In this document: one piece after another, positions 1 through 35,787 of the stretch
Layout: each line of letters begins with the position of its first letter
Position numbering within the stretch: position 1 is the stretch's first letter
Source of the DNA: an uncultured Gammaproteobacteria bacterium
GTDB lineage: Bacteria > Patescibacteriota > Microgenomatia > UBA12405
Assembly (NCBI GenBank): GCA_964503465.1
Contig: CAZCYZ010000001.1
Location: 17,583 to 81,582, forward strand
Direction: 5' to 3'
Length of the DNA: 64,000 bases
The notes under the pieces: generated by a model
The model's input: only the letters and a program-made list of their open reading frames with translations
The model's database searches: none
What the model was told of the DNA's origin: nothing
Position numbers and translations under genes: made by a program

Positions 1-951
1 ATTTCCACCAGTATTAAAAAAGACCCCGTTGACGCTGTTTTCAAATTCGAAAACAATCAGGTTCTCGATTTTCAATCCGCTCAGAATGGTTACACCATTA
101 TTGTAGATCAAACCAATCTTGATCTCTGTCAGTCTTTGGGTAAACTTATCGATTCTCCCGACAAAACCCTGTCCATTACTCTCCCTTTAAGTTTTACCCC
201 TCCAAAAATCACCAACTCCGATGTTAATAGTCTTGGAATCAAGGAGCTTCTTGGTCGTGGTACTAGCAGTTTTTCTCACAGCACCGCCATTCGTAATTTT
301 AATGTCGAAAAAGGTGCCTCAATTGTCAATCGTCTTCTTGTCGCTCCTGGTGACGAGTTCTCTTTCCTTAAGGCCCTGGGAGATGTTACTCTCGAAGCAG
401 GATATAAGAAAGCCTATGTCATCAAAAAAGGTAAAACCGAACTTGATGTTGGCGGTGGAATTTGTCAGGTTTCGACTACTTTCTTTCGTGCCATTCTCAA
501 TGCCGGTCTCGATATCACTCAACGCAAAGCTCATGCTTATCGGGTTCAGTATTATGAAGAAGATACCAAACCTGGTTTTGATGCCACTGTATTCATTCCC
601 AGCCCCGACTTAAGATTTATCAACGATACTGGTCATTATCTTCTTATTCAAAGCCAATATGATGGCAAAAATAAAAAATTGGCCTATGAAATTTATGGCA
701 CCTCCGATGGTCGTACTGTTGAAGTTAGTAATTATCGCCAATGGGATTACGCCCCTCCTCCTCCGGATATTTACATCGACGATCCAACTCTTCCCCCCGG
801 TAAGGTAGTTAAGGACGAATCTCGTATTCCCGGTCTCAAGACTTCATTTGATTGGAAAGTTAGTCGCAATGGTGAAACCATTCATCAAAAAAGTTTTGTC
901 AGTAACTACGTCCCTTGGGCTGCCGTCTACCGACGAGGCCCATCGCTATAA
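1..951 (+). CDS. VanW-domain protein, 5' end outside the window
   Basis: Frame 1 is open from nt 1 through the annotated ORF 136..951. The motif LDVGGGICQVSTTFFRA is typical of the VanW family. Confidence 0.6.
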   Translation: MSTSIKKDPVDAVFKFENNQVLDFQSAQNGYTIIVDQTNLDLCQSLGKLIDSPDKTLSITLPLSFTPPKITNSDVNSLGIKELLGRGTSSFSHSTAIRNFNVEKGASIVNRLLVAPGDEFSFLKALGDVTLEAGYKKAYVIKKGKTELDVGGGICQVSTTFFRAILNAGLDITQRKAHAYRVQYYEEDTKPGFDATVFIPSPDLRFINDTGHYLLIQSQYDGKNKKLAYEIYGTSDGRTVEVSNYRQWDYAPPPPDIYIDDPTLPPGKVVKDESRIPGLKTSFDWKVSRNGETIHQKSFVSNYVPWAAVYRRGPSL

Positions 952-2025
952 TTCTGCTCTCGGGTCCCTGTCTAATTTTCCAATATTTCCTACATATTCT
1001 TCTCTCATTGCCTTGTAGTATCCCGCCACTCCAATCATCGCCGCATTGTCGGTGTTTAGCCATTTTTTTACTGGCATATAAATTGGCAATTCCATCTCCC
1101 TAGCTAATCTTCTCAATTTTCTTCTCAAATCCAAATTAGCCATCACTCCGCCACAAGCCAACAAACTTTTTGGTTTATATCCCTTAACTGCTAATTTATA
1201 TTTCCGTAATAATTGCTCAAACACCGCCTCCTGAAAACTGGCCGCCAAATTTTCTAAATTTTTGCCAATCTTATCTTTTGGCCAATCTTTGATTTGGTAA
1301 TAAAATGATGTCTTCAGCCCCGAAAAACTATAATCCAATGTTTTTTTGTCAGCCATTGGGTGGGGGAGAGGCAAAAAATTTTTGTCTCCTGTCAATGCCA
1401 ACCTCTCAATCACTGGACCGCCCGGGTATCCCAACCCCAGCAATTTACTCGCCTTGTCCAATGCCTCACCCGCCGCGTCATCCAATGTCTCCCCAACCAC
1501 TTCATATTCGCCAACTTTTCCCATCAAAATAATTTTGGTATGACCCCCAGACACCGTCAACACTAGTCCTGGTAGGTCTATTTTTCTCTCCGGCAAACCC
1601 TTAGAATTTTTTACCCAATTACTCAATATATGCCCTTCTATGTGGTTAACCGCTACTAATTTTTTATTATATTTAATCGCCAGTTTTTTGGCTGTATCCA
1701 CTCCCACTCCCAATGCCGGCGCTAATCCCGGTCCTACCGTCACCGCAACCACATCGACACCCATCATTAAAAAATCCAATTCCCCTCCTTTTCTCAAGGG
1801 AGGGGTTAGGGGTGGGTTTTGTCTTATTTTTGATCTTTTTAGTGCTTCCAATATCACTGGCATAATTCTTTCGCTATGGGCTCGCTTGGCCAAGTCAGGT
1901 ACCACCCCTCCCCACTTTTTGTGTAAATCAATCTGTGACGATATTACTGATGACCACAATCGGTCATTGTTCAACACCGCCGCCGCGGTATCATCGCAAC
2001 TCGTTTCTATTGCCAAAATTCGCAC
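946..2025 (-). CDS. tsaD: tRNA N6-adenosine threonylcarbamoyltransferase TsaD (Kae1/YgjD family)
   Basis: N-terminus MRILAIETSCDDTAAAV. Motifs VTVGPGLAPALGVG and GGVMANLDLRR are present. There is an extra insert of ~15 aa (RQNPPLTPPLRKGGELDF) relative to canonical TsaD. Confidence 0.85.
   Translation of the reverse strand: MRILAIETSCDDTAAAVLNNDRLWSSVISSQIDLHKKWGGVVPDLAKRAHSERIMPVILEALKRSKIRQNPPLTPPLRKGGELDFLMMGVDVVAVTVGPGLAPALGVGVDTAKKLAIKYNKKLVAVNHIEGHILSNWVKNSKGLPERKIDLPGLVLTVSGGHTKIILMGKVGEYEVVGETLDDAAGEALDKASKLLGLGYPGGPVIERLALTGDKNFLPLPHPMADKKTLDYSFSGLKTSFYYQIKDWPKDKIGKNLENLAASFQEAVFEQLLRKYKLAVKGYKPKSLLACGGVMANLDLRRKLRRLAREMELPIYMPVKKWLNTDNAAMIGVAGYYKAMREEYVGNIGKLDRDPRAEL
1781..1820. repeat. 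Dispersed G/C-rich imperfect-palindrome repeat, copy 1, in-frame inside tsaD
   Basis: Sequence tcccctccttttctcaagggaggggttaggggtgggtttt. It shares the tcccctccttttctc and caaggga(r)gg...gggttt blocks with the copies at 2888, 3068 and 23601. Confidence 0.6.
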
Positions 2026-2089
2026 TGCTGTATTATCTCAATAAAGTAAAAAAATACCATCATTCCCCAGTTTGTGGTATTTTTAAAGT

Positions 2090-2677
2090 ATGAAATCCTC
2101 CTCCCAAAGTTACCTTTATTTAATTTTTGCCATCGTTCTTCTTACTATTTCCATTATCGGTGTCATCAGTCTTTATCGTCGTTCGTCTTCGCCATCAGTT
2201 GCCGCTCCAACTCCCACGTCCTCACCGCGTGGCTATCCTTCGCCCAGTTACGATTTTGAAACTGCTTCTGTTTCCCCCACCATTACCTCCGGTCTTTCCA
2301 TGGACGAAATTGAACCCACCCCCACCCACCAGCAATACACTGGCGATACTTTTCAGCTCAAATACCCTTCTTATCGAAAATTAACCATCGAAAATGAAAC
2401 CAGTGGCAAACGTTATGTTTTCTACTCCAATATTGGCAATATCACTCTTCATTCTGGTTCTGCCTGGTCCTGGACCCACCCCAGCCGTCAATTTAGCTCT
2501 ACTCTGCTTGTTGCCGATCAGCCAACTTTCCGCTATGACACTGCCACTCAAACTATCATCGATTTTCAACAAGGCGATCAACTGTTTACTATCCAATGCG
2601 TTCATAACGGTAAACCTACCCTCAAAACCGAATGTGACCAGTTTGTGGCTAGTTTTCAGTTCTCAAACAAAAACTGA
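2090..2677 (+). CDS. Hypothetical membrane-anchored protein with Pro/Ser/Thr-rich linker
   Basis: N-terminal hydrophobic helix (YLYLIFAIVLLTISIIGVISL) followed by a PT-rich low-complexity region. No recognisable catalytic motif. Confidence 0.4.
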   Translation: MKSSSQSYLYLIFAIVLLTISIIGVISLYRRSSSPSVAAPTPTSSPRGYPSPSYDFETASVSPTITSGLSMDEIEPTPTHQQYTGDTFQLKYPSYRKLTIENETSGKRYVFYSNIGNITLHSGSAWSWTHPSRQFSSTLLVADQPTFRYDTATQTIIDFQQGDQLFTIQCVHNGKPTLKTECDQFVASFQFSNKN

Positions 2678-3773
2678 TCTTTCTTGTCTGTTCGTCCACA
2701 TACTCAAAATTCACTGCTACGTATTTAACCTTCTTTTTTAACTGCGCCAGGTATTTCCTTCCCATATTTTCCGGCCATTCAATACACGCCACCGTCTTTT
2801 CTCCAAACTGTCCCAAAAAATTTATTTCTTCCAATTCTCTCTCGCTCGAGATTCGATACAAATCAAAATGCAAAAACTTCAACAATTCCCCTTGCCCTGT
2901 CAAGGGAAAGGGGTTAGGGGTTAGGGTTTTATATTCATTAAAAATCACAAAAGTCGGACTGACAATCTTCTCTTTTACTCCTAGCATTTTCCCCAGCCCT
3001 CTAGCAAACACCGTTTTACCGCACCCCAAGTCCCCACTCAACCCAAAAACTAACGGTTTAACTTGTGTCCTGTCAAGGGAAAGGTGGTACGAAGTACCAA
3101 AGGGTTTCTTTAATAAGAAACCCGCCACCTTTTCCGTCTCTCTTACCGACTTTGATATCAAGCTTTTACTATCCCCAGTTGTCAAATCTCCTCGTCTTAA
3201 CACCTCTATTTCTGGCTTGGTCGTATCAATTACCGTTGATGGTTTGTTTCTTGAAAGTTTGCCCACATCAACTATCAAGTCAATCATCCCTCTCTTCTTT
3301 TTTGACAAAGTTCTTAGAAAACTTTTTATCGAATAATGCGGTGTTCTACCTGATAGGTTAGCCGAAGTTGCCGTTATTGGCCCATCTAATACCCCAACCA
3401 AATCACTAATATATTTATTGTCCGGAATTCGTATCCCCAATGTTCCATTTTCTGCTTCTATTCCTTTGGTTACTCGGTGTTTTCCCTTCGATACTACCGT
3501 AAACGGACCAGGTAATAAATTCTTGTATATTTGTTCTGCACTTTCGGACAGCTCAACAAATTCTTGAGCCATCTTTTTATCCGCCACTGCTATCGATATC
3601 GCCTTTCCCGTCCACCTGTTTTTAAATGCCAACAGTTTATCAACTGCCAATTTATTAGTCGGGTCAACTGCCAATATATACACCGTGTCACTTGGGTACA
3701 CCACCAATCCACCGTCTTTAATCACCCTCATTGCCTGCTGAATATTTTCGTCCATTGTTTCCGATTTTACCAT
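2649..3773 (-). CDS. Fusion protein: L-threonylcarbamoyladenylate synthase TsaC/YrdC-Sua5 domain (N-terminal) plus TsaE/YjeE P-loop ATPase (C-terminal)
   Basis: N-terminal half has YrdC motifs (VVYPSDTVYILAVD, ATSANLSGRTP). C-terminal half has the TsaE Walker A GDLGCGKT, SPTFVIFNEY and HFDLYRI. It contains two in-frame copies of the dispersed repeat. Confidence 0.75.
   Translation of the reverse strand: MVKSETMDENIQQAMRVIKDGGLVVYPSDTVYILAVDPTNKLAVDKLLAFKNRWTGKAISIAVADKKMAQEFVELSESAEQIYKNLLPGPFTVVSKGKHRVTKGIEAENGTLGIRIPDNKYISDLVGVLDGPITATSANLSGRTPHYSIKSFLRTLSKKKRGMIDLIVDVGKLSRNKPSTVIDTTKPEIEVLRRGDLTTGDSKSLISKSVRETEKVAGFLLKKPFGTSYHLSLDRTQVKPLVFGLSGDLGCGKTVFARGLGKMLGVKEKIVSPTFVIFNEYKTLTPNPFPLTGQGELLKFLHFDLYRISSERELEEINFLGQFGEKTVACIEWPENMGRKYLAQLKKKVKYVAVNFEYVDEQTRKISFCLRTEN
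2888..2930. repeat. Dispersed repeat, copy 2, in-frame inside the TsaE domain
   Basis: Sequence ccccttgccctgtcaagggaaaggggttaggggttagggtttt. It encodes the extra peptide TLTPNPFPLTGQGEL between the conserved NEY and HFDLYRI motifs of TsaE. Confidence 0.65.
3068..3106. repeat. Dispersed repeat, copy 3, at the TsaC/TsaE domain junction
   Basis: Sequence tcctgtcaagggaaaggtggtacgaagtaccaaagggtt. It has the same cctgtcaagggaaagg core, in a different reading frame (encodes HLSLDRT), followed by a tggtac-gaa-gtacca hairpin. Confidence 0.55.
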
Positions 3774-10335: not shown

Positions 10336-10682
10336 TTTTCTTCATGCACTGGATCTATGCCCACCTGATAGGGGACTATCTTCTCCAAAATGACTGGATG
10401 TCACAGAACAAAAAACTTGCCTCCTGGCCATGTTTTGTTCACACCATTACCTACCTAATTCCCTTCATTTTTACCCCACTTGCTTGGTGGCAATTAGTTC
10501 TTATTTTTCTTCAACATTTTTTTCAGGACCGCTTCCAATTTGCTTATTGGTTCCTCCGTCTTAAGGGATCACCTGATTTTGCCATGCCTCCCACTGCCCC
10601 TTGGTCCCTCATTGTTATCGACAATATCTTTCACATTCTCTTTGTCGCCTTCATTGCCTGGTTGCCACAAGTGTTTCTCTAG
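10281..10682 (+). CDS. Hypothetical membrane protein (DUF3307-like HxxGDYLLQ motif). The real start is probably at Met 10344
   Basis: HWIYAHLIGDYLLQ motif and several hydrophobic helices. The stop codon immediately abuts the tRNA-fragment locus. Confidence 0.3.
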   Translation: MASALLARDNQKNLLGSIIFFMHWIYAHLIGDYLLQNDWMSQNKKLASWPCFVHTITYLIPFIFTPLAWWQLVLIFLQHFFQDRFQFAYWFLRLKGSPDFAMPPTAPWSLIVIDNIFHILFVAFIAWLPQVFL

Positions 10683-10740
10683 TGGGCATGCATGGAGTCG
10701 AACCATGGACCCCTCCGACGTCACGTCGGAGTGCTCTAAC
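10683..10740 (-). pseudogene. Partial tRNA (3' portion: palindromic anticodon-arm position, T-arm, acceptor 3' strand) of a paralog of the adjacent tRNA-Ile
   Basis: The reverse complement reads gagcac-TCCGACGTGACGTCGGA-ggggtc-catgg-ttcgact-ccatg-catgccc-a. No acceptor 5' strand or D-arm is present. The T-arm is identical to tRNA-Ile at 11006..11082. Confidence 0.5.
10705..10740. repeat. 36-bp perfect direct repeat, copy A (contains a 17-bp TCCGACGTCACGTCGGA near-palindrome)
   Basis: atggacccctccgacgtcacgtcggagtgctctaac is identical to 11092..11127. Confidence 0.8.
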
Positions 10741-11005
10741 TAACAAGTTTGCAATAACCATCACGGATTATTTTATCCAGTACAATTTTAGACTTTAATT
10801 TTTTCAGTCTAAATTCGACACTTCTTGCTGCCCGTAAACTTTGACACTTTTGACTAAACACTATCCTCCACGGAATTCCGCTTTTAGTGGCTCTTACTAA
10901 TCCAAGATTATGTTGTTTATTCAATCGTCTCTCTGGATCATTCGAGCTACCTACATAATATTTCCCAGTCAAACCACTCTTTAGGACATAAATATATCCC
11001 ACCAT
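10736..11005 (-). CDS. GIY-YIG nuclease family protein (UPF0213/YhbQ-like, ~89 aa)
   Basis: GYIYVLKSGLTGKYYVGSSNDPERRLNKQHN is a GIY-YIG motif with the conserved Arg and His-Asn. The start was set at the second Met so that it does not overlap the tRNA. The stop codon lies inside direct repeat copy A. Confidence 0.65.
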   Translation of the reverse strand: MVGYIYVLKSGLTGKYYVGSSNDPERRLNKQHNLGLVRATKSGIPWRIVFSQKCQSLRAARSVEFRLKKLKSKIVLDKIIRDGYCKLVS

Positions 11006-11082
11006 TGGTGGGTGTGCATGGATTCGAACCATGGACCCTCGACTTATAAGATCGATGCTCTAACCAACTGAGCTACACACCC
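11006..11082 (-). tRNA. tRNA-Ile (anticodon UAU) with encoded CCA
   Basis: Reverse complement GGGTGTG-TA-GCTC-AGTTGGTTA-GAGC-A-TCGAT-CTTATAA-GTCGA-GGGTC-CATGG-TTCGAAT-CCATG-CACACCC-A-CCA is a full cloverleaf. Confidence 0.7.
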
Positions 11083-11091
11083 AAATTTTAA

Positions 11092-11127
11092 ATGGACCCC
11101 TCCGACGTCACGTCGGAGTGCTCTAAC
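11092..11127. repeat. 36-bp perfect direct repeat, copy B
   Basis: Identical to 10705..10740. Confidence 0.8.
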
Positions 11128-11144
11128 CACCAAGCTACATGCCC
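11093..11144 (-). pseudogene. Partial tRNA (5' portion: acceptor 5' strand, D-arm, palindromic anticodon-arm position) with its own TATAAT promoter
   Basis: Reverse complement gggcatg-ta-gctt-ggtggtta-gagc-ac-TCCGACGTGACGTCGGA-ggggtccat, then diverges. Upstream (minus strand) is ttgatataattcc 13 nt before the tRNA 5' end. Confidence 0.5.
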
Positions 11145-11260
11145 AATACTATGGAATTATATCAATTGTATCCTTCTGGTAGTATAAGTCGGGTGACTTA
11201 ATCCAAGAGAACTTTTATCGCCGTAGGCGAAATATAAATAAAGCGGATAATCGGAACAAA

Positions 11261-11304
11261 GTGACGATATAAGATCGGTGCTCTAACCACCAAGCTACAT
11301 GCCC
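11261..11304 (-). pseudogene. Chimeric partial tRNA (same 5' acceptor/D-arm as 11093..11144 fused to an Ile-like cgatcttata anticodon region) with a duplicated promoter
   Basis: Reverse complement gggcatgtagcttggtggttagagcac-cgatcttatatcgtcac. The upstream flank ttggtataattcc duplicates the promoter-like flank of 11093..11144. Confidence 0.45.
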
Positions 11305-11325
11305 AAAATTAAGGAATTATACCAA

Positions 11326-11580
11326 TTATCGACCTACAATAGCTCTCAGCACTCGCTTTTCCGCTGTAATTAAATTTCCCCCTTCCAACTCCTGCATATC
11401 AGTTCTTACTGTCTGCCATGCTTCTGTCCTGGCTTCCCTCGCCCCCCAGAACTTTCTGGTTCGTTCTGCAGGTTGTCCTATCACTTTTCCATTCTTGTCA
11501 ACTCCTTTGGCGGCCCTGCTCAACTGTTCATTAACTGCCCGAAACTTAGACAGATCACTCTCTAACTTATCACCAGGCAT
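11326..11580 (-). CDS. Hypothetical protein
   Basis: 84-aa ORF between the tRNA fragments and tRNA(CAU). No recognisable motif. Confidence 0.3.
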   Translation of the reverse strand: MPGDKLESDLSKFRAVNEQLSRAAKGVDKNGKVIGQPAERTRKFWGAREARTEAWQTVRTDMQELEGGNLITAEKRVLRAIVGR

Positions 11581-22219: not shown

Positions 22220-22543
22220 GTGAACATGACAAAAACTACTCGAGGAATTTTGTTCGGTGCTCTAGCCGGTCTTATCGACCTGATTCCTATGATTCTTCAA
22301 GGTCTCACCCTCGATGCTGATTTGTCGGCATTTTCTCTGTGGGTCATCTCAGGTTTTTTAATTGCCACCACTAATCTTCCACTTAAAGGTCCAGTCAAGG
22401 GGGTAGCTATTTCTTTTTTAGTCCTTATCCCGTCAGCTGTACTTATTGGTTGGCAAGAACCATTCTCTCTTCTGCCCATCACTATCATGACTCTAATTCT
22501 TGGTTCGATTCTTGGATACCTAGTGGATAGAAATAACGTTTAG
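22220..22543 (+). CDS. Small membrane protein
   Basis: 107 aa with 3 predicted TM helices. Confidence 0.3.
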   Translation: MNMTKTTRGILFGALAGLIDLIPMILQGLTLDADLSAFSLWVISGFLIATTNLPLKGPVKGVAISFLVLIPSAVLIGWQEPFSLLPITIMTLILGSILGYLVDRNNV

Positions 22544-23568
22544 ATTTTCCCGTATCTCTTTAGCCCTATCTTAATTATCTTTCCAATTATTTCATCATAG
22601 TTTATTCCCGCAGCCATTGCCGATACTACTAGTTTTGACTCATCAGGCGGTGGCAACAGTCCTACCGGGCAATTAATTTCCAGTACATACAATTTTCCCT
22701 CCAGATCCATTCTCATATCAACTCTACTCCAATCTCGACATTCAATTGTTTTAAAAGCCATTTTCGCCAGCATTTCAATCACTTCTTTTAATTGACCATC
22801 CACTACTGCTGGACAAATAGTCGAATCAACTCTATTAGGATTGTTTGGCATATCGTGTATCCATTTCACTTCGTAGCTGTCAATCTTCTCCATTTCCGCT
22901 GGTAGCCCGCTAAAGTCAGATTCGACAATTGGTAACACTTCCAAATCATTCCCATTCCCCAATACTGGTACGGTAAACTCTCGTCCTTCCAAAAATCTTT
23001 CCACTAACGCCGGCTCCTTAAATTTACTAATACTTTCTCTTACCCTTTCTCTTAGTTCGTTTTCATTTCTCACCACCGAATTATTTCTTATCCCAGCACT
23101 CGATCCCTGTCCGTTGGCTTTAACAATTAGTGGGAACGTTAAATCGTCATTTAATCTCTCATTTTCGTCCTCAAACACCTGCCACCCTGGAGTTGGTATT
23201 TTGTAGTAATGCCAGATTTCTTTGGTTCGGTATTTGTTCAAAATCAGTGCCGCCGACATTGGTGACGGTCCCGAATAGGGGATTTTCAATATCTCGGCTA
23301 TCATTGGCACGTGAGCCTCTCTATCAGCACTATCGGTTATCGCCTCGGCAAAATTAAAAATAAAATCAATCGAGCTTCTTTCACTTCTTAATTTTTGATA
23401 CAAATCCTCATTAGCCTCCAGTGGTAACACTTCAAAGTCGTTTTTTCTAATCGCATTTGTTATCGCCTCAATCGTTTTCGGAGTATCAAATTCTGCCTGA
23501 AATTCCGCCTCCGGTTGGTTGAAATCTACCCTATTCTGTTTGAGATTGTAAACAAATGCAATTTTCAT
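22540..23568 (-). CDS. ATP-grasp enzyme (D-alanine--D-alanine ligase-like)
   Basis: MKIAFVYNLK N-terminal domain, and an ATP-grasp core LIVKANGQGSSAGI...ALVERFLEGREFTV...LEINCPVGL. Confidence 0.6.
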   Translation of the reverse strand: MKIAFVYNLKQNRVDFNQPEAEFQAEFDTPKTIEAITNAIRKNDFEVLPLEANEDLYQKLRSERSSIDFIFNFAEAITDSADREAHVPMIAEILKIPYSGPSPMSAALILNKYRTKEIWHYYKIPTPGWQVFEDENERLNDDLTFPLIVKANGQGSSAGIRNNSVVRNENELRERVRESISKFKEPALVERFLEGREFTVPVLGNGNDLEVLPIVESDFSGLPAEMEKIDSYEVKWIHDMPNNPNRVDSTICPAVVDGQLKEVIEMLAKMAFKTIECRDWSRVDMRMDLEGKLYVLEINCPVGLLPPPDESKLVVSAMAAGINYDEIIGKIIKIGLKRYGKI

Positions 23569-23600: not shown

Positions 23601-23652
23601 TCCCTCCTTTTCTCCCCCTGCCCTGTCAAGGGAAGGGTCGGGGAAGGGTTTG
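23601..23652. repeat. Dispersed repeat, copy 4 (intergenic, upstream of dnaG)
   Basis: tccctccttttctccccctgccctgtcaagggaagggtcggggaagggtttg. It shares the tccctccttttctc block with copy 1 and the ccctgtcaagggaa block with copies 2 and 3. Confidence 0.6.
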
Positions 23653-23668
23653 ATGTTAAAATTACCCA

Positions 23669-25447
23669 GTGTCGACCCAGGTTGAAGAAATCAAACAAAA
23701 GCTTGACATTGTTAATATTATTTCCCGTTATGTTCCAATCAAAAAACGTGGTCGCCATTTTGTGGCTCCCTGTCCTTTCCACTCCGAAAAAACTCCTTCT
23801 TTTATAGTTTCCCCCGAACTTCAAATTTTTAAATGTTTTGGTTGTGGAAAAGCTGGTGATATTTATAATTTTATTCAAGAATTCGAACGGGTTGATTTTG
23901 GTGAAGCCCTAGAAATTTTGGCCAAAGAAGCTGGTATTACTCTTGAACGTAGTTCTCAATCTTCCCCCGAAGTCTCCCGCCGCAAACGTCTTCTCGACCT
24001 CCACTCTCAGGTTCAAAAATTCTATCACTATCTGCTAACGTCCCACCCCTTGGGTAAACCTGCTCTTGAATACGTTCTCAAACGGGATATTACTTTGTCG
24101 ACTATCAAACTATTTGGTATCGGTTTTTCTCCCGCTAATTCCTCTCTTCTGGTCAATCATCTTCTCAAAAAAGGTTTCAAGGATTCTGAACTTATCGTTT
24201 CTGGAATTTTTGGTCGCAGCCAATACCAATCTCGTTTTTATGACCGTTTTTCCGGCCGTCTCACCTTTCCGCTTTCCGACCCTCGTGGTCAAATCCTTGG
24301 TTTTTCTGGTCGTCTTCTTCCCGGAGCTAAAAGTGATTTAGCCAAATACATCAATTCCCCCGAAACCGATCTTTATCACAAAAGTCAAATAGTTTTTGGC
24401 CTTCATCTGGCTAGGGAATCAATTAGACTTGCCGGCAAAGTAGTTGTCACCGAGGGGGAGTTTGACATGATCGCCCCCTTTCAGGCCGGTATTACTAATA
24501 TTGTCGCCCTCAAAGGCACTGCTTTTACTCTCGATCAGCTCCAGCTTCTTCGTCGTTACACTAACACTTTGGTTTTGGCTCTCGATTCCGATTTTGCTGG
24601 TTCCGCCGCCGCCAAAAGAAGTATCGAGCTAGCCGATTCTCTTGATTTTGATATTCAAGTTTTAGATCTTGGTGGCCGTTACAAAGATCCCGACGAAGCC
24701 GTTCGTGCCGATCCAGATTTTTTTAAAAATCAATTAAATAACCCTTTACCAATCTGGGATTTCTTCATCAATTCTGCCATTAAAAACTATGGCACCGATA
24801 CTGTTACCGGCAAGCGTCAAATATTAAGCGACGTTCTCCCCTCACTTGTCAAAATTACCAATTCCGTTATTCGTTCTGATTATTTTCACAAACTAGCTAG
24901 GTTAATTAATTCTGATTATGACTCGATAGTTCAAGAATCGGCCAAATACTCTCCCAGCCAAACCAAGTCTGCCACCCCAGTTACCACTAAGCCCGTTCCT
25001 GTTTCTCAAGTTGAAAAGCTTGAAGAATATCTCTTAAGTCTTGTTTTGAGCGCCAAAAAACCTCAAGTTTTAGCCAACCGTCTTCGGTCCGATCTCGTAA
25101 ATTTCACTACTACTCGATTCAAAAATCTTGTTGCCCAATTATTGGCTACCGCCAATTTCGACATCGCCACTTTTGGCTCCAACCTTCCTTCCGAGCTCCA
25201 GCCCACTTTTCAGCACCTTTATTTAGCTGGCACCAGTCAGGATTTAGAGTCCAAGGTTCGTCGCCGGGAAATCGCCCAAACCCTGCAACAACTACGGATA
25301 ATTAGTCTCAAAGATCGACTAAACTCACTTGGGGCTCAAATTGCCAACCGCGAATCTGCTGGTCCCGACGTTGATTTTTCCGATCTCGAAACAGAATATA
25401 ATCAACTTCTTTCAAAACTTTCCCAGTTACAATTAGAAAAATACTAG
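23669..25447 (+). CDS. dnaG: DNA primase DnaG
   Basis: CHC2 zinc finger [11 protein letters not shown]...[23 protein letters not shown]...LALDSDFAG. Confidence 0.85.
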
Positions 25448-27991: not shown

Positions 27992-28012
27992 GGGCTATTC
28001 TACCACTGAGAC

Positions 28013-28279
28013 TCATTGAACTATGTCACTTTCAAATACCACTCCGGGTACTGTTATCTGTCCTATTATGTCAATAGTCTCCAGTCTGTGCCCCGTTCCC
28101 CTGGTGGTTGGGCTTCGTGGGTGATTCAGATGGCTGTTCACCGCCATTATTATCGACGCCCTGTCAGTTAGTTTCCCATAGTCATCAGCGATTACTCTTT
28201 GACAAGTAACACAATGTATTCTTCTTTGTGGTCTCCGTTCTTTGTTTTCATCTCCCATAGGTCGTATATTAGCAGACAA
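28013..28279 (-). CDS. Hypothetical protein (possible JAMM/RadC-like remnant)
   Basis: 88-aa ORF. AVNSHLNHPRSPTT weakly resembles the HxHP..S JAMM motif. Confidence 0.2.
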   Translation of the reverse strand: MSANIRPMGDENKERRPQRRIHCVTCQRVIADDYGKLTDRASIIMAVNSHLNHPRSPTTRGTGHRLETIDIIGQITVPGVVFESDIVQ

Positions 28280-28410
28280 ATGTACAAATTAGTGGCTTTT
28301 GGGTCAGTGTTATTCTATAATCAATCCTAACTTTTGCACCTTTTACAACCCACATTACTTCAGTTTTAGTTTAAAACTTCAAATTTTAAATTAAAAATTG
28401 AATAAATATT

Positions 28411-28462
28411 CCCCTGTAGCTCTCCGCCAGCTGGCGGACGGTAGAGGCTCGCCTGTTAAAAT
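28411..28462 (+). pseudogene. Partial tRNA-Asn (5' portion to anticodon loop) with a 16-bp palindrome inserted in the D-loop
   Basis: cccctgtagctc-TCCGCCAGCTGGCGGA-cggtagag-g-ctcgcctgttaa, then diverges. The intact tRNA-Asn is 310 bp downstream. Confidence 0.5.
28416..28444. repeat. 29-bp perfect direct repeat, left copy, containing the 16-bp perfect palindrome TCCGCCAGCTGGCGGA
   Basis: gtagctctccgccagctggcggacggtag is identical to 28718..28746. Confidence 0.85.
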
Positions 28463-28467
28463 TAAGT

Positions 28468-28746
28468 GTGTATATCGTTTACGCGATTTACCACCCAAAA
28501 TCAGGAAAAATCTATATAGGTCAAACAGTCGACCTAGGTAATAGATTAAGGGAACATAACGATCCTAACTGCCAGCGCCATTTATATACCAAGAGGATCG
28601 GGATCGGCTGGGAAGTTCTTTATAAGGAAACTCAGCCGACCAGACAGCTTGCCTTAAAGCGAGAAAAACAGTTAAAAAGTTATCAAGGCAGATTGTTCAT
28701 TAAAAAACACATTACAGGTAGCTCTCCGCCAGCTGGCGGACGGTAG
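28468..28746 (+). CDS. GIY-YIG nuclease family protein (UPF0213/YhbQ-like, 92 aa, GTG start)
   Basis: VYIVYAIYHPKSGKIYIGQTVDLGNRLREHN matches GIY-YIG with the conserved Arg and His-Asn. The C-terminal 9 codons are encoded by the right direct repeat, and the stop is the last triplet of that repeat. Confidence 0.65.
   Translation: MYIVYAIYHPKSGKIYIGQTVDLGNRLREHNDPNCQRHLYTKRIGIGWEVLYKETQPTRQLALKREKQLKSYQGRLFIKKHITGSSPPAGGR
28718..28746. repeat. 29-bp perfect direct repeat, right copy
   Basis: Identical to 28416..28444. It is followed by a degenerate anticodon-stem-like sequence ggcaccgcctgtaat. Confidence 0.85.
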
Positions 28747-28772
28747 GGCACCGCCTGTAATACTCAATACAT

Positions 28773-28845
28773 TCCCCTGTAGCTCAGTCGGTAGAGCGCT
28801 CGCCTGTTAAGCGATCGGTCCGTGGTTCGAGTCCACGCGGGGGAG
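28773..28845 (+). tRNA. tRNA-Asn (anticodon GUU)
   Basis: tcccctg-ta-gctc-agtcggta-gagc-g-ctcgc-CTGTTAA-gcgat-cggtc-cgtgg-ttcgagt-ccacg-cggggga-g is a complete cloverleaf. No encoded CCA. Confidence 0.8.
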
Positions 28846-28947
28846 CAAGCAAAATATATCCTAAAGATACGTAACAAATGTTTCTATGGTATGGCAAGAG
28901 TGACAAGTATATAATGTGGTTAATCAATAATTAAATTACTCAAATCC

Positions 28948-29973
28948 ATGTCTCCTCAAAAAGAAAAAATAGTTACCTCAGAACCGGATCTTCCAATTGA
29001 TCGTTTACGTTTAGCCTTCCGCCTTCAAGAAAGAGTCGAAGAAATCGACCAGGCTTTAGAAATAGCGGCACGGCCAAAGGATGTTTTAGGATTCGATGGT
29101 GCCCAGCCCGCCACCTTAAACGAGTTTCATCAACTTCGTGAAGCATATCAAGCGAGGTTGGATCAATCTCTCGCAAGTATGGATCCTTCTACTCGCGAGC
29201 AGTATGAGGCTATTTCTACGGCACGTCAGACTGCCAGAGAGGAAGAAGATAGTAGGGTACAAGCCTATCTAAAAGACCATTTTGGTGTCGATTGGGTCGA
29301 AACAGGTAGAACGCGGTTTGAGTGGAAACGTGAACATCCCCTTAATGTTGATACCGAATTGAATCCTGGTCATACCTGGGAGCAATATGAGGTAACACCA
29401 GAAGTCATGGCTGAAAAGGCTAGATTGTCTATGGAATTGTCACTCGTCTTATATGTCAGCCAACTTGCCACCGATCCCAGAGATCGTGTTGCATTTGATT
29501 TGAGCCAAGAAGCCTCTCAGGATTTACAGCGTATTTCTAAATGCCTAATGATACAAACGAATCGCATGCTGACGACTAATGGTGAGCAAAGAGACAGAAT
29601 CAGGCGGTTTGAAGATGTTGCCTGGAACTTTCGCAGAGAGACTGATGGGTTTTATCGGGCATTCGAACAAATCGCCGGAGATTCTATTTTCGAACCATAC
29701 AAGAAAGAGGAACCTCCAACAGAAGGCACCAAAATTGAGGAAGAACCTGCAGAAGTTAAATTCTATACCAGAGAATGTCCTCACTGTCAGGTTCAGTTTC
29801 ATAGCCGAAAAGCCGAGGGAAAATGCTACAATTGCACCCTTGACGAAATTACCCACGGGAATCCTCCCGAGGAAGGTGACTTTAACTCTGCCGGCATTAT
29901 ATCCGGTACACTCACAGATGAAGAGTGGAAAAATCTTCAAGCCGATCTGGCTGCAGTTGAGCTGGGTAGATAG
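28948..29973 (+). CDS. Hypothetical protein with C-terminal zinc-ribbon (CPHC...CYNC)
   Basis: 341-aa ORF. Higher GC than the flanking genome. C-terminal CxxC...CxxC. Confidence 0.4.
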   Translation: MSPQKEKIVTSEPDLPIDRLRLAFRLQERVEEIDQALEIAARPKDVLGFDGAQPATLNEFHQLREAYQARLDQSLASMDPSTREQYEAISTARQTAREEEDSRVQAYLKDHFGVDWVETGRTRFEWKREHPLNVDTELNPGHTWEQYEVTPEVMAEKARLSMELSLVLYVSQLATDPRDRVAFDLSQEASQDLQRISKCLMIQTNRMLTTNGEQRDRIRRFEDVAWNFRRETDGFYRAFEQIAGDSIFEPYKKEEPPTEGTKIEEEPAEVKFYTRECPHCQVQFHSRKAEGKCYNCTLDEITHGNPPEEGDFNSAGIISGTLTDEEWKNLQADLAAVELGR

Positions 29974-30036
29974 TTCTGCTCCCATTCTTCCATCCAAATG
30001 CTATTCTATCGGTGAGTTTTTGTGGATATAACTGTT

Positions 30037-30070
30037 TCGAATGTTCTCCATCTCGTGGAGCATTGTGACC
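30037..30070. promoter_or_regulatory. Conserved palindromic upstream motif, copy 1 (tttcgaatgttctccatctcgtggagcatt)
   Basis: Near-inverted repeat AATGTTCTCCA / TGGAGCATT about 100 bp upstream of the 30141 start. A second copy lies at 30615..30648. Confidence 0.45.
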
Positions 30071-30140
30071 TCATATTTATAAATAAATCTGTGGCGATAT
30101 ATGTTTGAATTGAAGTTGCTAAACAGTTTATAATCACCTT

Positions 30141-30590
30141 ATGAAAGATGAATCATTAGTAATTACTGATTGGGATATGGATTATGCCGATCTCTCGCAG
30201 AGGGATGAGTATGAGGAACTTAAAGCCCAAATTACTGAAGTCTACGGTACACCAGAACGTGATTCAGTAGATTGGCAAGCGTGTCTTGATGCCACGCTAC
30301 TTGCCGTTTACCGTTCAGAAGTATCTCGTTGTCAAAGTCATGTTGTATCACCACCTGGATCAGAGACGGAAGAAGTCAGGCCGGCTGTTTTGGAGTCACA
30401 TCTTCGCATCGCTGAACAAAGATTAGCGATACACCTGGATCGTGTTGATCAAAGATGCTTGCAACCAGAATATGATACCGCTTTCGAACTTGCTGGCAAA
30501 AAATTAGACAAAGTATCCGAAGGTAATCCATACGCTGATATGTTTGTTCTTGCTCACTTAGGTGCTGGGTCGGTTCAGTTGGTAAGATAA
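30141..30590 (+). CDS. Hypothetical protein
   Basis: 149-aa ORF. TATAAT hexamer ends 6 nt before the ATG (tataatcaccttATG). Confidence 0.4.
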   Translation: MKDESLVITDWDMDYADLSQRDEYEELKAQITEVYGTPERDSVDWQACLDATLLAVYRSEVSRCQSHVVSPPGSETEEVRPAVLESHLRIAEQRLAIHLDRVDQRCLQPEYDTAFELAGKKLDKVSEGNPYADMFVLAHLGAGSVQLVR

Positions 30591-30614
30591 TCTAGAATTT
30601 GGAGAGCAGTAATT

Positions 30615-30648
30615 TTTCGAATGTTCTTCGTTCCGTAGAGCATTAAGT
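30615..30648. promoter_or_regulatory. Conserved upstream motif, copy 2 (tttcgaatgttcttcgttccgtagagcatt)
   Basis: Shares TTTCGAATGTTCT...GAGCATT with copy 1. Lies ~120 bp upstream of the 30769 start. Confidence 0.45.
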
Positions 30649-30768
30649 AACACCAAAAATTCTAAAATCATTCCACTCCTCGAGCCAGCAAAATATTTCC
30701 GAAGAATACGTACATTAACTCATGACACATAGTTTAGTAGAAGTGTTGTTCACTGCTATAATCATCCT

Positions 30769-31602
30769 ATGAACATAACCGCCGACACCAAAGTCATTGC
30801 TCGTCTTCATACCAAACCCAGTCCCAGAGGTCTTAATATCTATAATCCATTCTTTCAAGAATCTAATCTCAATGCTGTCTATCTACTCTTTTTTAACCCT
30901 GACCCGGCTCCTCTTATTTCAGCCATGCGTGGGTTTAATATCGCCGGAGCCATCACAGCCGGATTTGAGTCGGATGACAGACTTCCATCTCTTTTGGATG
31001 AAGTCGATGACGTTTCTGCCTACACGGGTCGAGTCGGGTTCATCACTAATAATGGTGGGAAATTAATCGGATCATCACAAGGTGGTCAGGGATTACTAAG
31101 ATCTATCCTCAAACATGGCCATATTGAAAATAAGAAACTTGTTATAGTCGGTTCTGGCAATATCGCCAAAGGATTGTTGTTTAACATAAAAAAACAGTTT
31201 CCTGATCCTCCCGAAGTAGTTCTAGTTAACCGCACAATTGAAAAGGCGCTATCCATTCAAAGAGATTTTTCATTTGTCACTTCCACCAAGTCAGTCACTG
31301 ATCTGTCTACCGAAACTGGTGATATTTTAGTTAATGCTACTGATATTGGTGGCAGTCAAGCTGACGATGTTTACACCGAATCAATCGTTGGCAACTTTCA
31401 GACGATAGCCGATGTCACTTTTGAAACCGAGAACACTAATCTGGTTAATCTGGCTAAGAAATTGAATAAACAATTCTCAACCGGCTGGGATATGTTTGCT
31501 TATCAAGGCCAGGTTATTCTCGAAAGTATCTTTCATACAGGCATTGATATTGGTTCGCTCAGAAAGCATGTTGTAAGTGGATTATCAGAAGTTGTTTCTT
31601 AG
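30769..31602 (+). CDS. Shikimate/quinate 5-dehydrogenase-like protein (AroE family)
   Basis: N-terminal substrate-binding domain resembles the AroE family. NAD(P)-binding region has VIVGSGNIAKG (Rossmann glycine motif) and VNRT...DILVNATDIG. Confidence 0.55.
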   Translation: MNITADTKVIARLHTKPSPRGLNIYNPFFQESNLNAVYLLFFNPDPAPLISAMRGFNIAGAITAGFESDDRLPSLLDEVDDVSAYTGRVGFITNNGGKLIGSSQGGQGLLRSILKHGHIENKKLVIVGSGNIAKGLLFNIKKQFPDPPEVVLVNRTIEKALSIQRDFSFVTSTKSVTDLSTETGDILVNATDIGGSQADDVYTESIVGNFQTIADVTFETENTNLVNLAKKLNKQFSTGWDMFAYQGQVILESIFHTGIDIGSLRKHVVSGLSEVVS

Positions 31603-31644
31603 TTTATGCCCGTGTAATTTAGGCATTCGATAGCTAATCAACAT

Positions 31645-32757
31645 ATGTCCGAGAATCCTCAGTCAATAGTCAGTCGAGAAAAACCACCAGTTGACCTATT
31701 GGCCGACGAAGTTGTCAGATTAAGAGAATCACTCGAAAGACGTGGCGAACAATTGGGTTTTTCCAACATCCTAGCTTTGTCTTATGTTGTCGAACTTTAT
31801 TCTAGCGTTAATGGTCAACAATCCCTAGTGGAGTGGTTTCGTGACCCAAAATCTGACGAAGAAATTTTTACTCTTCAACAATCAGTGGACTTAGGACATG
31901 TACTCGAAAATGCCAATAGGTTATCGGCCATTCATGGGATAACTCCTCCTCCGTTATCTACCGATCTTACTGTTCCCCAAGATCAATTGGCTATTCCCAG
32001 GACACCCGCCCAAGTTGATCAAGAGATTCTCGATGCTACTGAAACCTTACCCGGTGAACGTCTAATTACCCTTTTTCGCTATGTTGATACCGTTGGTTGG
32101 AGAGATGACACCCAGTCCATGGAGCCAGATGAGATTAGATCATTTATGGATGAACCGTCTAATCAGGTAATCAATCACGCTCGAGGCTTACGATTTCCCG
32201 TGGCAAGTATTGAGGACGCTCGAGGCATTAGACATGAATCGTTATTTGCTCTTAGCCAGCTAATTACATATCCAAGATTTGTTTTGGATAGAACTGATGA
32301 TGTTGTTTATTCCGGATTAGTCAATGAACCAAGACACCTTGACATCCTTCGTGAACACTTACTCCTCTCGGAAAGGGAGTCACTGGCTCGCTCTGTTCAA
32401 AGGGCTGACAAAGTTGTTGCTTTTACCTCCGCATCAGTTGGTAGTCAAGGTCTATGTAATTGGGGATTTTTTTGTATTGAAATGCAGGTCCCAGAGAGAT
32501 TAATTCTCAATGTTCGAGACTTGTGTATTCAGGGCGATGAAGTTATGGGTGACAACGATGGAGTTGATCCGGACACACGACAGAGACTATCACTCTCAAT
32601 TCATTCCTACCCACCTCCACTAGAAACTTATCAAAGTGTTGGCGGTATTCACCTAGACGAAATGGCTGTTCTTGGGGGTATTAGGCGAGAGTGGGTAAGG
32701 TCTGTCATCGACATTAGGGACCAATCAATTGTGTGGCAGAAATCGTCAGACAAGTAA
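31645..32757 (+). CDS. Hypothetical protein
   Basis: 370-aa ORF with no recognised motif. Confidence 0.4.
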   Translation: MSENPQSIVSREKPPVDLLADEVVRLRESLERRGEQLGFSNILALSYVVELYSSVNGQQSLVEWFRDPKSDEEIFTLQQSVDLGHVLENANRLSAIHGITPPPLSTDLTVPQDQLAIPRTPAQVDQEILDATETLPGERLITLFRYVDTVGWRDDTQSMEPDEIRSFMDEPSNQVINHARGLRFPVASIEDARGIRHESLFALSQLITYPRFVLDRTDDVVYSGLVNEPRHLDILREHLLLSERESLARSVQRADKVVAFTSASVGSQGLCNWGFFCIEMQVPERLILNVRDLCIQGDEVMGDNDGVDPDTRQRLSLSIHSYPPPLETYQSVGGIHLDEMAVLGGIRREWVRSVIDIRDQSIVWQKSSDK

Positions 32758-32842
32758 TTTTCTATCTACCCCTTGCTGTGTCGTTGTTCGTCCAAATATA
32801 ATACGATTATAGCCTATAACATGATATAATCCCATTCATATT

Positions 32843-33484
32843 ATGCCCGTAACTATTGAACAAGTTGGCCATGCTTGGGATGGTCTGACTGCCGAGGATC
32901 ATGCTTATGGTCAAATTGTCGCCACTGGTATGGCCGCTATCCTTGAATCGCGTGGATATGGTCATGATGCCGGGCCAATTTGGCAAACCATTGGTGTCAG
33001 TCAGGAAGTTCAACTTAGACTTGACCCACAGGAGACATTTACTAGGGCAATTGAGTTAGTTATGTTGAATGATGGTGGCGATCCCGACTCTCAACAGTTT
33101 GTTCAATGGCTTCAGGGCAATGGCCTTCAACAACTTACCGATCCTCGATTGACGCCTTACCTTGAACCTTATCTTGCTACTTCTGACAGCACCCCGTTTG
33201 TTAATCGACTTCTAAGTTTTGTCAATCATCCCATTCCTTATGATCAAATATCTACCAAGCACGACCTTGGCTATTTTCCTCAATGTTACCTAACCTTTAT
33301 TTCTGTCCTACTCGCTTCACGTCTTAGTGGTGCTGGCAACACCGAGTTGATTACTCGCCTTAGGGAAGCATCATCAGAATTACTCACTACTCCTGACTTT
33401 CAAAGAATTGTTGGTCTCTATGCTACTATTACCGACACTCGGCAATTTGCCGAACAATTATCAATCTCTACATTTAATGCCTAA
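32843..33484 (+). CDS. Hypothetical protein
   Basis: 213-aa ORF. A TATAAT lies 14 nt upstream of the ATG. Confidence 0.4.
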   Translation: MPVTIEQVGHAWDGLTAEDHAYGQIVATGMAAILESRGYGHDAGPIWQTIGVSQEVQLRLDPQETFTRAIELVMLNDGGDPDSQQFVQWLQGNGLQQLTDPRLTPYLEPYLATSDSTPFVNRLLSFVNHPIPYDQISTKHDLGYFPQCYLTFISVLLASRLSGAGNTELITRLREASSELLTTPDFQRIVGLYATITDTRQFAEQLSISTFNA

Positions 33485-34010
33485 AGATCGTTTATATGGC
33501 CTTCCCGTACGTACTAAGGTCGTCAAAATAACTCAAGGTTGGCACGGTCCGTTTAGTCATCAGGATCTCGGCGGTGGTCGAACAGATATGACCTTTGCTG
33601 TTGATTTTAGTGCCGAAGAAGATACCCCGGTTGTAGCCGCCAGAGCTGGTAAACCCAGAATTGTTGTCGATCATCACCAAAGCCACTACGAAGGTGATGA
33701 CCCAAAAATAGGTTTAGCCGTTAACACCACCAATCTGGTGATTATCGAGCATCGAGATGGCACCGAAGTGGAATATACAGTCTATTCTCACCTTAAGCCA
33801 GGCAGTGTGCCAGAAAAAGTTAAAAACGGACAAATGGTTGATGAGGGAGAACAAATAGGTCTATCTGGAAAAAGTGGTTGGGTTCCTGTGCCCCATGTTC
33901 ATTTCCAGGTTTTGTCTCGTAAATCTCCAGATCAAAGATTAAGAAGTCGCCCAGTACGTTTTAGGGGTTATAACGGTCCACTGGAAGACGATAAGATTAG
34001 AGGAAAATAA
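33480..34010 (+). CDS. M23-family (lysostaphin-like) metallopeptidase domain protein (start uncertain; the annotated ORF starts at 33408)
   Basis: HQDLGGGRTDMTFAVDF, GEQIGLSGKSGWVPVPHVHFQV. HxxxD and HxH are typical of the M23 family. Confidence 0.55.
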   Translation, partial: PKDRLYGLPVRTKVVKITQGWHGPFSHQDLGGGRTDMTFAVDFSAEEDTPVVAARAGKPRIVVDHHQSHYEGDDPKIGLAVNTTNLVIIEHRDGTEVEYTVYSHLKPGSVPEKVKNGQMVDEGEQIGLSGKSGWVPVPHVHFQVLSRKSPDQRLRSRPVRFRGYNGPLEDDKIRGK

Positions 34011-34044
34011 CATCCTTATAACATTTCAAATGCTATAATTACCC

Positions 34045-34350
34045 ATGACCATTGAAGCTACTAAACGCCAAATCGGTATATCTAGGGTCTTTGATGTCTT
34101 AGCCAAAGTCCATATTGAAAAACATTTACCAGGAGAGGTTCCGGTACTACGTCAACTACAGTGGGAAAACCCAGGGTCTGCCGATGCTAGATTGTTAAGT
34201 ACAGTTATTACCTTAAGACAACAAGGCAAAATGCCCGATGCTCGCACTATGTGGGCTGATGCAGAGAGAATGTACGATCTGCCTGTCGATAGACAAGGAG
34301 ATGCTTATCTTGCTTACCACCAGAGAGTATTTAGCGATCAATCAAAATAA
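34045..34350 (+). CDS. Hypothetical protein
   Basis: 101-aa ORF. TATAAT ends 6 nt before the ATG. Confidence 0.35.
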   Translation: MTIEATKRQIGISRVFDVLAKVHIEKHLPGEVPVLRQLQWENPGSADARLLSTVITLRQQGKMPDARTMWADAERMYDLPVDRQGDAYLAYHQRVFSDQSK

Positions 34351-34355
34351 TAATT

Positions 34356-34844: not shown

Positions 34845-34958
34845 AAATTTCATCCACACAATGACTGAAAAAACCCAATGGTTATTTGATAGAAGTAAAT
34901 TAATGCGTGGTGCATCTCCAGTTACTCTAGAGGTCGAACTTACCCCCCAGAACTGGCT

Positions 34959-35240: not shown

Positions 35241-35301
35241 TCCGTCACCCACTTCCTCATACCTGTACTATTCATTCGGGGGAGCCCAGTATAATATACT
35301 C

Positions 35302-35727: not shown

Positions 35728-35750
35728 ATCTCCACCACTCCCCGAGCACC

Positions 35751-35787
35751 AAAAATCCCCTCCATCACGGAGGAGATTTTAGTTTTT
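35751..35787. terminator. Bidirectional intrinsic terminator
   Basis: aaaaa-tcccctcc-atcac-ggaggaga-tttt, lying between convergent genes. Confidence 0.45.

Follow-up and report, generated by a model that had tools for sequence, protein, structure and literature searches.

The closest described parallels to the repeats reported here are the Rickettsia palindromic elements (RPE), selfish palindromic DNA that lies in frame within a range of unrelated housekeeping genes in bacteria whose genome is reduced (Ogata et al. 2000, as presented in PMC10969869). In that account RPE are dispersed palindromes of about 100-150 bp with one conserved peptide per family, found at positions compatible with the protein fold and also between genes, and without a known transposase; small non-autonomous repeats of the miniature inverted-repeat transposable element (MITE) type, such as Correia, ERIC and BOX, are described there as sometimes lying within open reading frames (ORFs), with some in-frame fusions. 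Repetitive extragenic palindromes (REP), which also build bacterial interspersed mosaic elements (BIME), are short imperfect palindromes of 20-40 nt with a 5' GTAG and are extragenic by definition. They are mobilised by REP-associated tyrosine transposases (RAYT), which are of the Y1 HUH type. In the hairpin-based IS200/IS605 family the orientation of insertions is biased, and Ton-Hoang et al. are said to have tied this bias to the replication strand in 2010. Here we describe a family of strand-polar repeats of ~40-60 nt, found in a window of 64,000 nucleotides (contig CAZCYZ010000001.1, positions 17,583 to 81,582), where two copies lie in a gene that fuses tsaC and tsaE of the tRNA modification t6A (N6-threonylcarbamoyladenosine).

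We consider it quite probable that both segments are independent insertions of a small, non-coding, hairpin-forming dispersed repeat family that extends across Candidatus Shapirobacteria. The family apparently consists of compact, strand-polar, REP/RPE-like small palindromic mobile elements that are undescribed in the candidate phyla radiation (CPR); a full-text literature search for such repeats in CPR, Patescibacteria or Shapirobacteria gave nothing relevant, which, with incomplete coverage, is absence of evidence only. The host genes and the copies in the window are the following.

946..2025, minus strand: tsaD gene, 359 aa, just downstream of the fusion gene; hosts repeat copy 1
1780..1823, plus strand: repeat copy 1 (subfamily C-like), in tsaD; match to the family model at 1780-1821, E=6e-7
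2649..3773, minus strand: tsaC(sua5/yrdC)-tsaE fusion gene, 374 aa, from the ORF list; hosts repeat copies 2 and 3
2884..2930, plus strand: repeat copy 2 (subfamily A), in the TsaE loop; match at 2886-2929, E=9e-10
3066..3106, plus strand: repeat copy 3 (second-mini-hairpin subfamily), upstream of the TsaE P-loop; match at 3066-3106, E=7e-5
23607..23653, plus strand: repeat copy 4 (subfamily B), intergenic; match at 23612-23653, E=8e-12

The family model is a profile hidden Markov model (HMM) made from 54 copies from many genomes, and it finds exactly four copies in the window, all in plus orientation, with E from 8e-12 to 7e-5. Copies 2 and 3 have the exact 16-mer CCTGTCAAGGGAAAGG in common, and a third near-exact match to it lies at 23622. 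In agreement with the initial annotation, the 16-mer and the HMM matches identify the two segments in the fusion gene as copies of one dispersed repeat, and both had been located correctly. Three of the four copies are in ORFs, within 2.8 kb of t6A genes (P about 3e-4 under uniform placement), while copy 4 is flanked by a D-Ala-D-Ala-ligase-like gene (22540-23568, minus) and dnaG (23669-25447, plus).

Copy 2 consists of the hairpin CCCCTTGCCCT-GTCA-AGGGAAAGGGG, followed by TTAGGGG TTAGGG TTT. Copy 1 reads CCCCTCCTTT-TCTC-AAGGGAGGGG and then TTAGGGG TGGG TTT, and it is translated in tsaD as QNPPLTPPLRKGGEL. Copy 3 is built as (T)CCTGTCAAGGGAAAGG, then TGGTACGAAGTACCA, then AAGGGTTT; it lacks the outer left arm and has the CGAAG-loop second mini-hairpin GGTACGAAGTACC as its middle. 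It is a full-length member of its subfamily and not a truncated fragment, and its 39 nt recur in two unrelated genomes (L021, L037) as well as at the orthologous site in L126, where L-numbers denote loci compared with the window.

The tails at 2910-2930 and 1802-1821 read GGGGTTAGGGGTTAGGG, a telomere-like TTAGGG(G) repeat. Tails of the TTAGGG type sit here in genes of the Sua5/Kae1 type, and the Pfam name of PF01300 is 'Telomere recombination'; eukaryotic and archaeal Sua5 and Kae1 are linked to telomere maintenance. This likeness is probably a coincidence, because copies of the family are found in genes of unrelated function and between genes as well.

Across genomes, the 54 copies align into subfamilies that have the hairpin, the TCAA loop and the GGGTTT end in common and differ in arms, middle and tail. 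Read on the plus strand, the unit comprises a hairpin, with pyrimidines in the left arm, purines in the right and a loop of the GTCA/TCAA or (G/T)TCAA type between them. Then follow a variable middle, either a spacer of 2-3 nt or a second mini-hairpin with a CGAAG-type loop, and a G-run tail that ends in GGGTTT or GGGATT.

The arms covary. When copies were picked by loop, right arm and tail only, left arms paired with their own right arms over 7.6 bp on average, 81% of them over at least 7 bp, against 5.0 bp and 20% with the right arms of other copies. This comparison took over from an RNAalifold consensus, in which four of five pairs had compensatory changes in a MAFFT alignment of mixed subfamilies, with poor register and just those 5 pairs. 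The second hairpins covary too (GTCCGAAGGAC, GGCCGAAGGCC, GGTACGAAGTACC, GCGGCGAAGCCG), and taken together the pairings point to a hairpin that is maintained by selection. Folding z-scores of single copies as RNA are modest (-0.1 to -2.0), because shuffled sequences with a C-block and a G-block fold as well. A G-quadruplex (G4) motif, defined as four runs of at least 3 G with 1-7 nt spacing, is matched by copies 1, 2 and 4, in copy 2 on the plus strand, and not by copy 3, and 75 of the 110 such motifs in the 1.03 Mb of DNA scanned belong to elements. The potential to form a G4 is thus frequent in the family and not universal.

Other explanations of the segments were dropped: an intein, an intron, a CRISPR-like array or a terminator does not fit elements that are so short, are in frame in intact genes and, in both orientations, lack a T-run immediately behind a hairpin. 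In Rfam searches, the window at the gathering threshold and positions 1700-3200 at E<=10 gave tRNAs and noise only.

The loci orthologous to the window total 869 kb, and all DNA scanned amounts to about 1 Mb. A structure scan for arms, loop and tail finds 128 elements in the 869 kb and none in shuffled sequence; with 43 more in non-syntenic loci there are 171. Nearly half of these, 80 of 171 (47%), lie within ORFs of at least 600 nt, and the intragenic copies are read on the C-rich strand 58 times and on the G-rich strand 22 times. Inverted pairs are occasional (L008, L065, L091). By a hairpin regular expression, three syntenic orthologous loci contain 3 to 8 further copies each, both genic and intergenic. 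A scan for the 16-mer in one genome per species (596 Gb) returned 119 stretches, most of them matches by chance; with the full element as the requirement, true members were found in about 25 loci of Shapirobacteria-type metagenome-assembled genomes (MAGs). Among viral contigs the 16-mer pattern had 21 matches, none with a full element.

Some MAGs that carry the family are titled 'uncultured Gammaproteobacteria' or 'Candidatus Parcubacteria', and these labels look wrong. The loci concerned are L021, L030, L034, L037, L041, L064, L070, L085, L108 and L125 (CAYOPC01, CAYPBP01, CAYUUU01, CAYRYK01 and others) and L008-L073 (JAEWUV01); L073 also contains tsaCE and tsaD matching the Shapirobacteria orthologue P0010.

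The product of the fusion gene has both domains in one polypeptide and is thus a TsaC-TsaE fusion by Pfam: Sua5_yciO_yrdC (PF01300) matches aa 17-195 (E=3.5e-43) and TsaE (PF02367) aa 240-365 (E=2.7e-26). In TsaD the PF00814 match (E=5.5e-78) is broken into two stretches with the insert between them. Close homologues of the fusion protein number more than 100 (62-77% identity, 343-419 aa), and each of them has both domains. The same holds for all of the best-scoring 120 homologues listed, and the named ones among these are Candidatus Shapirobacteria (Microgenomates, CPR).

In the AlphaFold2 (AF2) model of the fusion protein, with a mean predicted local distance difference test score (pLDDT) of 76.7, pLDDT falls below 50 at aa 226-237 and 286-294, and these low-confidence stretches are the two repeat inserts. 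The first lies between helix 210-225 and strand 241-247, the second between strands 278-282 and 299-304. The peptide spanning the inserts is exemplified by EYKTLTPNPFPLTGQGELLK. As the initial annotation had it, copy 2 adds residues between the NEY and HFDLYRI motifs of TsaE: its minus-strand translation is TLTPNPFPLTGQGEL (aa 283-297), where stand-alone TsaE has just 3-10 residues. Copy 3, translated on the minus strand as KPFGTSYHLSLDRT (aa 223-236), had been placed at the TsaC/TsaE junction, and here the alignment says otherwise. Because the N-terminal helix of stand-alone TsaE (T.S..ET...A) aligns to fusion aa 205-223, copy 3 lies within TsaE, in the loop between alpha1 and beta1, ~20 residues past the real domain boundary at roughly aa 195-205. 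The homologue search with the TsaE domain only, which returned mostly fragments and stand-alone TsaE and not the fused set, served solely to locate the start of this domain.

Both sites of the fusion gene, here tsaCE, were extracted from 78 metagenomic orthologues, with identities as low as 56%, by means of anchors in conserved parts of the protein. The upstream site, that of copy 3, is empty in about 20 of them and the TsaE loop in about 28. Occupied sites contain at least six subfamilies or unrelated repeats, and the orientation is always the same. In the closest relative, L127 (77% identity), both inserts are absent. L126, also at 77% identity, has the subfamily of the window at the upstream site, and its TsaE loop holds a variant of the B type that is translated in a different frame (TLPPSPSLDRAGG). 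More distant orthologues, in a codon alignment of the window and six orthologues, each have their own subfamily at the upstream site. Filled and empty sites face each other among close relatives (window/L126 vs L127, L003 vs L180, L135 vs L187, L137 vs L169, L151 vs L199), and the occupant types are dispersed over a neighbour-joining tree of masked proteins, in which sisters are often filled vs empty. Where the flanks of such pairs are near-identical (e.g. L137, L169), the difference is a clean indel beside an A-run.

This turnover bears on the origin of the fusion. The initial annotation raised the possibility that recombination between repeat copies had joined tsaC and tsaE, and one copy does fall between the two Pfam domain matches. 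We find this hardly credible. The fusion is clade-wide, being present in the 120 best-scoring homologues listed and in the 78 metagenomic orthologues, and about 20 of the 78, the most divergent included, have short linkers free of repeats, such as LYKKNGKL in L127, LLKKHLDEP in L137 and those of the divergent L200-L206. Further, copy 3 is not at the boundary, and its site is variably occupied, by another subfamily in each lineage, so the insertions came after the fusion. The fusion is older than the insertions and unrelated to them.

Repeats of other origin are also found in the tsaCE loops. They comprise 7-mer tandem arrays (GTAATTC, GGAAATT, TTTCAAC), with peptides like NYELRITNYELR, and a different perfect palindrome, GTAGAGACG-N-CGTCTCTAC (VETLHATSLQ). 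Unrelated repeat DNA fills the TsaE loop or the linker in L148, L136, L204, L168, L166 and L184 and the linker in L134, L150, L182 and L208.

A similar picture is seen in tsaD, where the site of copy 1 is empty in L127 and contains other subfamilies in L001 and L005. A second hot spot lies after '...GGHTKIIL'; both the window and L127 lack an insert there, and elsewhere it holds the repeat-like peptides NPSHASRDLPLTRE, NPSVLRTAPLDEREPSLGQK and NPPESPLDRGD. The tsaD orthologues in which it is filled are the following.

L001 12316-13458: tsaD orthologue, second hot spot filled
L003 11731-12849: tsaD orthologue, second hot spot filled
L005 4586-5737: tsaD orthologue, second hot spot filled

Just downstream of tsaD, a small gene of the four-helix-bundle, Avd-like family PF05635 (23S_rRNA_IVP) was observed in L001 (13515-13862) and L005 (7413-7778) and not at that position in the window.

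It should be asked whether selection acts on the inserted peptide or on the DNA. Copies 2 and 3 are read in different frames, as was noticed from the start. On the coding (C-rich) strand the hairpin core CCCTTGA is read as CCC TTG ACA GGG (PLTG) in copy 2 and as TCC CTT GAC AGG (SLDR) in copy 3, and the core of copy 1 in tsaD has the frame of copy 2. The remaining frame through the core leads to a TGA stop, and the fusion gene uses both frames that are open there. The claim that the same DNA is tolerated in three frames is therefore right for the terminal AAACCC module, where copies 1, 2 and 3 use all three phases, and too wide for the core, which has two.

Further, the inserts are conserved at positions that do not change the protein. 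At codons for the same amino acid, third-position identity to the window is 0.46-0.58 over the gene and 10-13 of 12-13 in the inserts; pooled, it is 77/90 (86%) in the inserts against 838/1590 (53%) elsewhere. Copy 3 and the copy at the same site in L126 are identical at 41 of 42 nt, while the synonymous sites of the gene are 58% identical. Seven lineages that have subfamily A at one and the same codon agree at 39 of 46 nt; they vary only within the 3-nt spacer that separates the G-runs, where the residue is N, C, D, Y, I, V or S. Because copies occur between genes, the same site is read in other frames and third positions are conserved, the conserved entity is the DNA and not the peptide. The suggestion that the DNA is tolerated irrespective of the peptide is borne out by the intergenic copy at 23607-23653, by the other frame in L126 and by the third positions.

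The opposite account is that there was a single ancient insertion per site, inherited vertically and kept for a peptide useful to the t6A enzymes (e.g. PFPLTGQGE). It would explain why many orthologues (64-71% identity) have TLTPxPFPLTGQGEK at one and the same position of TsaE. We judge it very improbable, since the nearest relatives have no such peptide (L127) or a variant in another frame (L126), and in other lineages the site is occupied by other subfamilies or by repeats of unrelated sequence. Moreover, the one variable codon is free to change even as synonymous positions stay frozen, intergenic regions and unrelated genes contain the same DNA, and the AF2 model is of low confidence in the inserts.

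If the segments are, as we prefer to read them, insertions of a dispersed mobile family, then elements would land in, or be deleted from, these roughly 90%-coding genomes everywhere, and in genes only copies that are in frame, free of stops and placed in loops or linkers would survive. Such a survival filter would account for repeated hits in the same permissive loops of TsaE and TsaD, and the peptide would be a tolerated by-product of the DNA. The elements presumably are, or were, mobile, and the hairpin may act as single-stranded DNA, either in a replication-coupled insertion or through selection against the opposite orientation.

The orientation of the elements follows strand composition. 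GC skew is extreme in the window, at -0.2 to -0.28 along most of it, with values of about 0 from 28 to 36 kb; third-codon-position skew, in plus-strand terms, is -0.40 for plus genes and -0.35 for minus genes. Elements have their G-rich strand on the C-rich strand of the genome in 117 of 128 cases in syntenic loci and in 36 of 43 in non-syntenic loci (p=9e-6). In JAEWUV01 the orientation flips with the sign of the skew within one genome (L032 and L068 vs L073). It is also independent of gene strand, as the copies of L001 in leuS (minus) and tsaCE (plus) point the same way.

By the conventional skew rule, the G-rich strand is the leading strand. In line with it, genes lie on the G-rich strand 81:47 in 20 independent loci, while in the window 70% of the coding sequence is on the C-rich strand, opposite to this trend. 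Were the G-rich strand the leading one, an element's G-tract strand would be the template of the leading strand and its C-rich hairpin strand would be on the template of the lagging strand. Such a placement would fit a replication-coupled, single-strand insertion, or else selection that keeps G-quadruplex-prone DNA off the exposed template.

Two observations on skew may be added. Most ORFs of the low-skew island at ~28000-36000 of the window have no match in Pfam, suggesting that this segment was recently acquired or inverted. In L041, from a repeat-bearing genome and the sole dnaA locus examined, skew is strongly positive on both sides of dnaA (840-2186; 0.15-0.57) with no switch, so the switch, and presumably the origin, is not beside dnaA there.

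Several results weigh against a mobile, purely selfish family. No match to IS200 TnpA or E. coli RAYT was found by tblastn in about 1 Mb of Shapirobacteria DNA, which is a weak test with approximate queries. No target-site duplication (TSD) or terminal inverted repeat (TIR) is visible at the filled/empty pairs, and the inverted repeat is central. The density of copies in the window is low, 4 in 64 kb. The 'empty' site of L127 (AAAACC AGA GGGGGAAAA) retains both ends of the element, and some empty sites may therefore be deletions and not sites that were never occupied. Further, subfamily A is found at the identical codon in at least seven scattered lineages with 39/46 nt frozen. This pattern requires insertions that recur at a specific site, gene conversion, or else an ancient insertion on which strong selection acts at the nucleotide level, and the last of these would mean that the element has a function and does not only spread selfishly. 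A purely selfish model does not account in full for the freezing of orthologous copies, which leaves room for a reading in terms of function or site specificity.

One such reading is that these are functional DNA or RNA structure motifs acting in cis and under selection, for example strand-polar replication or chromosome signals similar to KOPS (FtsK orienting polar sequences) or Chi, or of the G-quadruplex/hairpin kind, located in genes for want of intergenic space. The strong polarity relative to GC skew speaks for it, and so does conservation far above that of synonymous sites, with changes only in the G-run spacer as expected if G-tracts and stems matter. A canonical G4 in three of the four window copies, the share of the elements among the G4 motifs scanned (75/110) and the presence in some tails of GGGNAGGG, the KOPS consensus of E. 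coli, are likewise in its favour. We nevertheless hold it to be unlikely. Presence varies between close relatives at every site examined, subfamilies interchange at one site, and unrelated repeats (the 7-mer arrays and the other palindrome) fill the same loops. The spread is uneven, with three of the four copies within 1.3 kb and then one in 60 kb, where KOPS/Chi-like signals are frequent and even; the elements are polar, but sparse, clustered and variably present. In addition, the subfamily of copy 3 is without the G4 motif, and the usual skew rule puts the G-rich motif on the lagging strand, opposite to KOPS.

It is conceivable, although we would not expect it, that the elements are an undescribed CPR class of single-strand (hairpin/G-quadruplex) DNA that either inserts repeatedly and site-specifically in identical codons of essential genes or is kept by nucleotide-level selection as strand-polar structural signals. 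Either alternative would explain jointly that 39/46 nt are frozen despite saturated synonymous sites, that variation is in the spacer only and that orientation matches composition nearly perfectly.

Returning to the insertion of a dispersed family as the preferred reading, the comparison with described systems is closest for RPE. The elements resemble RPE, as far as these are described in PMC10969869, in being dispersed palindromes in unrelated housekeeping genes, in frame at fold-compatible positions and intergenic too, and in having no known transposase. RPE were compared by description only; the two are presumably unrelated in sequence, and the host phylum is a different one, CPR/Patescibacteria. 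The present elements are about a third of the RPE size in that account, are modular, are translated in two frames and from both strands where RPE have a peptide per family, and are strongly polar with respect to strand composition. With MITEs, as the same source describes them, they have in common that they are small, non-autonomous repeats sometimes placed within ORFs, but they are without TIR or TSD and fall below the usual MITE range in size.

With REP and BIME the likeness lies in short imperfect palindromes in many copies, covarying arms, no TIR or TSD and occasional inverted pairs. The differences are that about half of the elements are intragenic, that they have an extra G-run tail and that GTAG is absent from their alignment. 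The IS200/IS605 family and the palindrome-associated transposable elements (PATEs) are also hairpin-based and without terminal inverted repeats or target duplication, and the strong orientation bias seen here relative to GC skew may be comparable to theirs; insertion beside a short fixed sequence, as in IS200/IS605, is possible, the candidate being the A-run by the GGGTTT end. The present elements are far shorter, have one central hairpin instead of two subterminal ones and gave no TnpA match in the weak tblastn test above, and the mechanism by which they might move is an inference.

All this suggests a more compact, strand-polar system of the RPE kind in a second, unrelated genome-reduced lineage. 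The in-frame colonisation of housekeeping genes by palindromes has so far been treated as a peculiarity of Rickettsia; it may instead be what generally happens once selfish or structural DNA enters a genome in which hardly any space is left between genes. It could explain much of the length variation and many 'low-complexity' loops of CPR proteins, and it calls for caution in annotation and in alignment-based phylogeny, where peptides such as PLTGQGE, SLDRARG and SPFDKGD are repeat-derived. The inserts may also serve as natural markers that show where the t6A enzymes have permissive loops. Finally, the frozen sequence and the polarity raise the question of what hairpin/G-quadruplex DNA does at the replication forks of organisms that cannot yet be grown alone.

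Elsewhere in the window, a GIY-YIG nuclease ORF of 89 aa (about 11005..10736, minus; Pfam PF01541, E=3e-12) lies between tRNA-Ile(tat) and a duplicated 3' tRNA portion (10682-10747). A tRNA 5' half, GGGCATGTAGCTTGGTGGTTAGAGCAC, has two further copies at 11304-11275 and 11144-11118, within the region 10682-11330, where ARAGORN reports three intact tRNAs only. This arrangement resembles a tRNA gene that a small mobile cassette has split or duplicated. Another repeat occurs just upstream of a tRNA gene (28773-28845) as two 50-nt copies, 28416-28465 and 28718-28767, which are 84% identical, 302 nt apart and contain the perfect palindrome CCGCCAGCTGGCGG. At 48635-48885, a Thr/Pro-rich degenerate tandem repeat with periods of 12-30 nt is found in a fibronectin type III protein of 776 aa (47070-49400).

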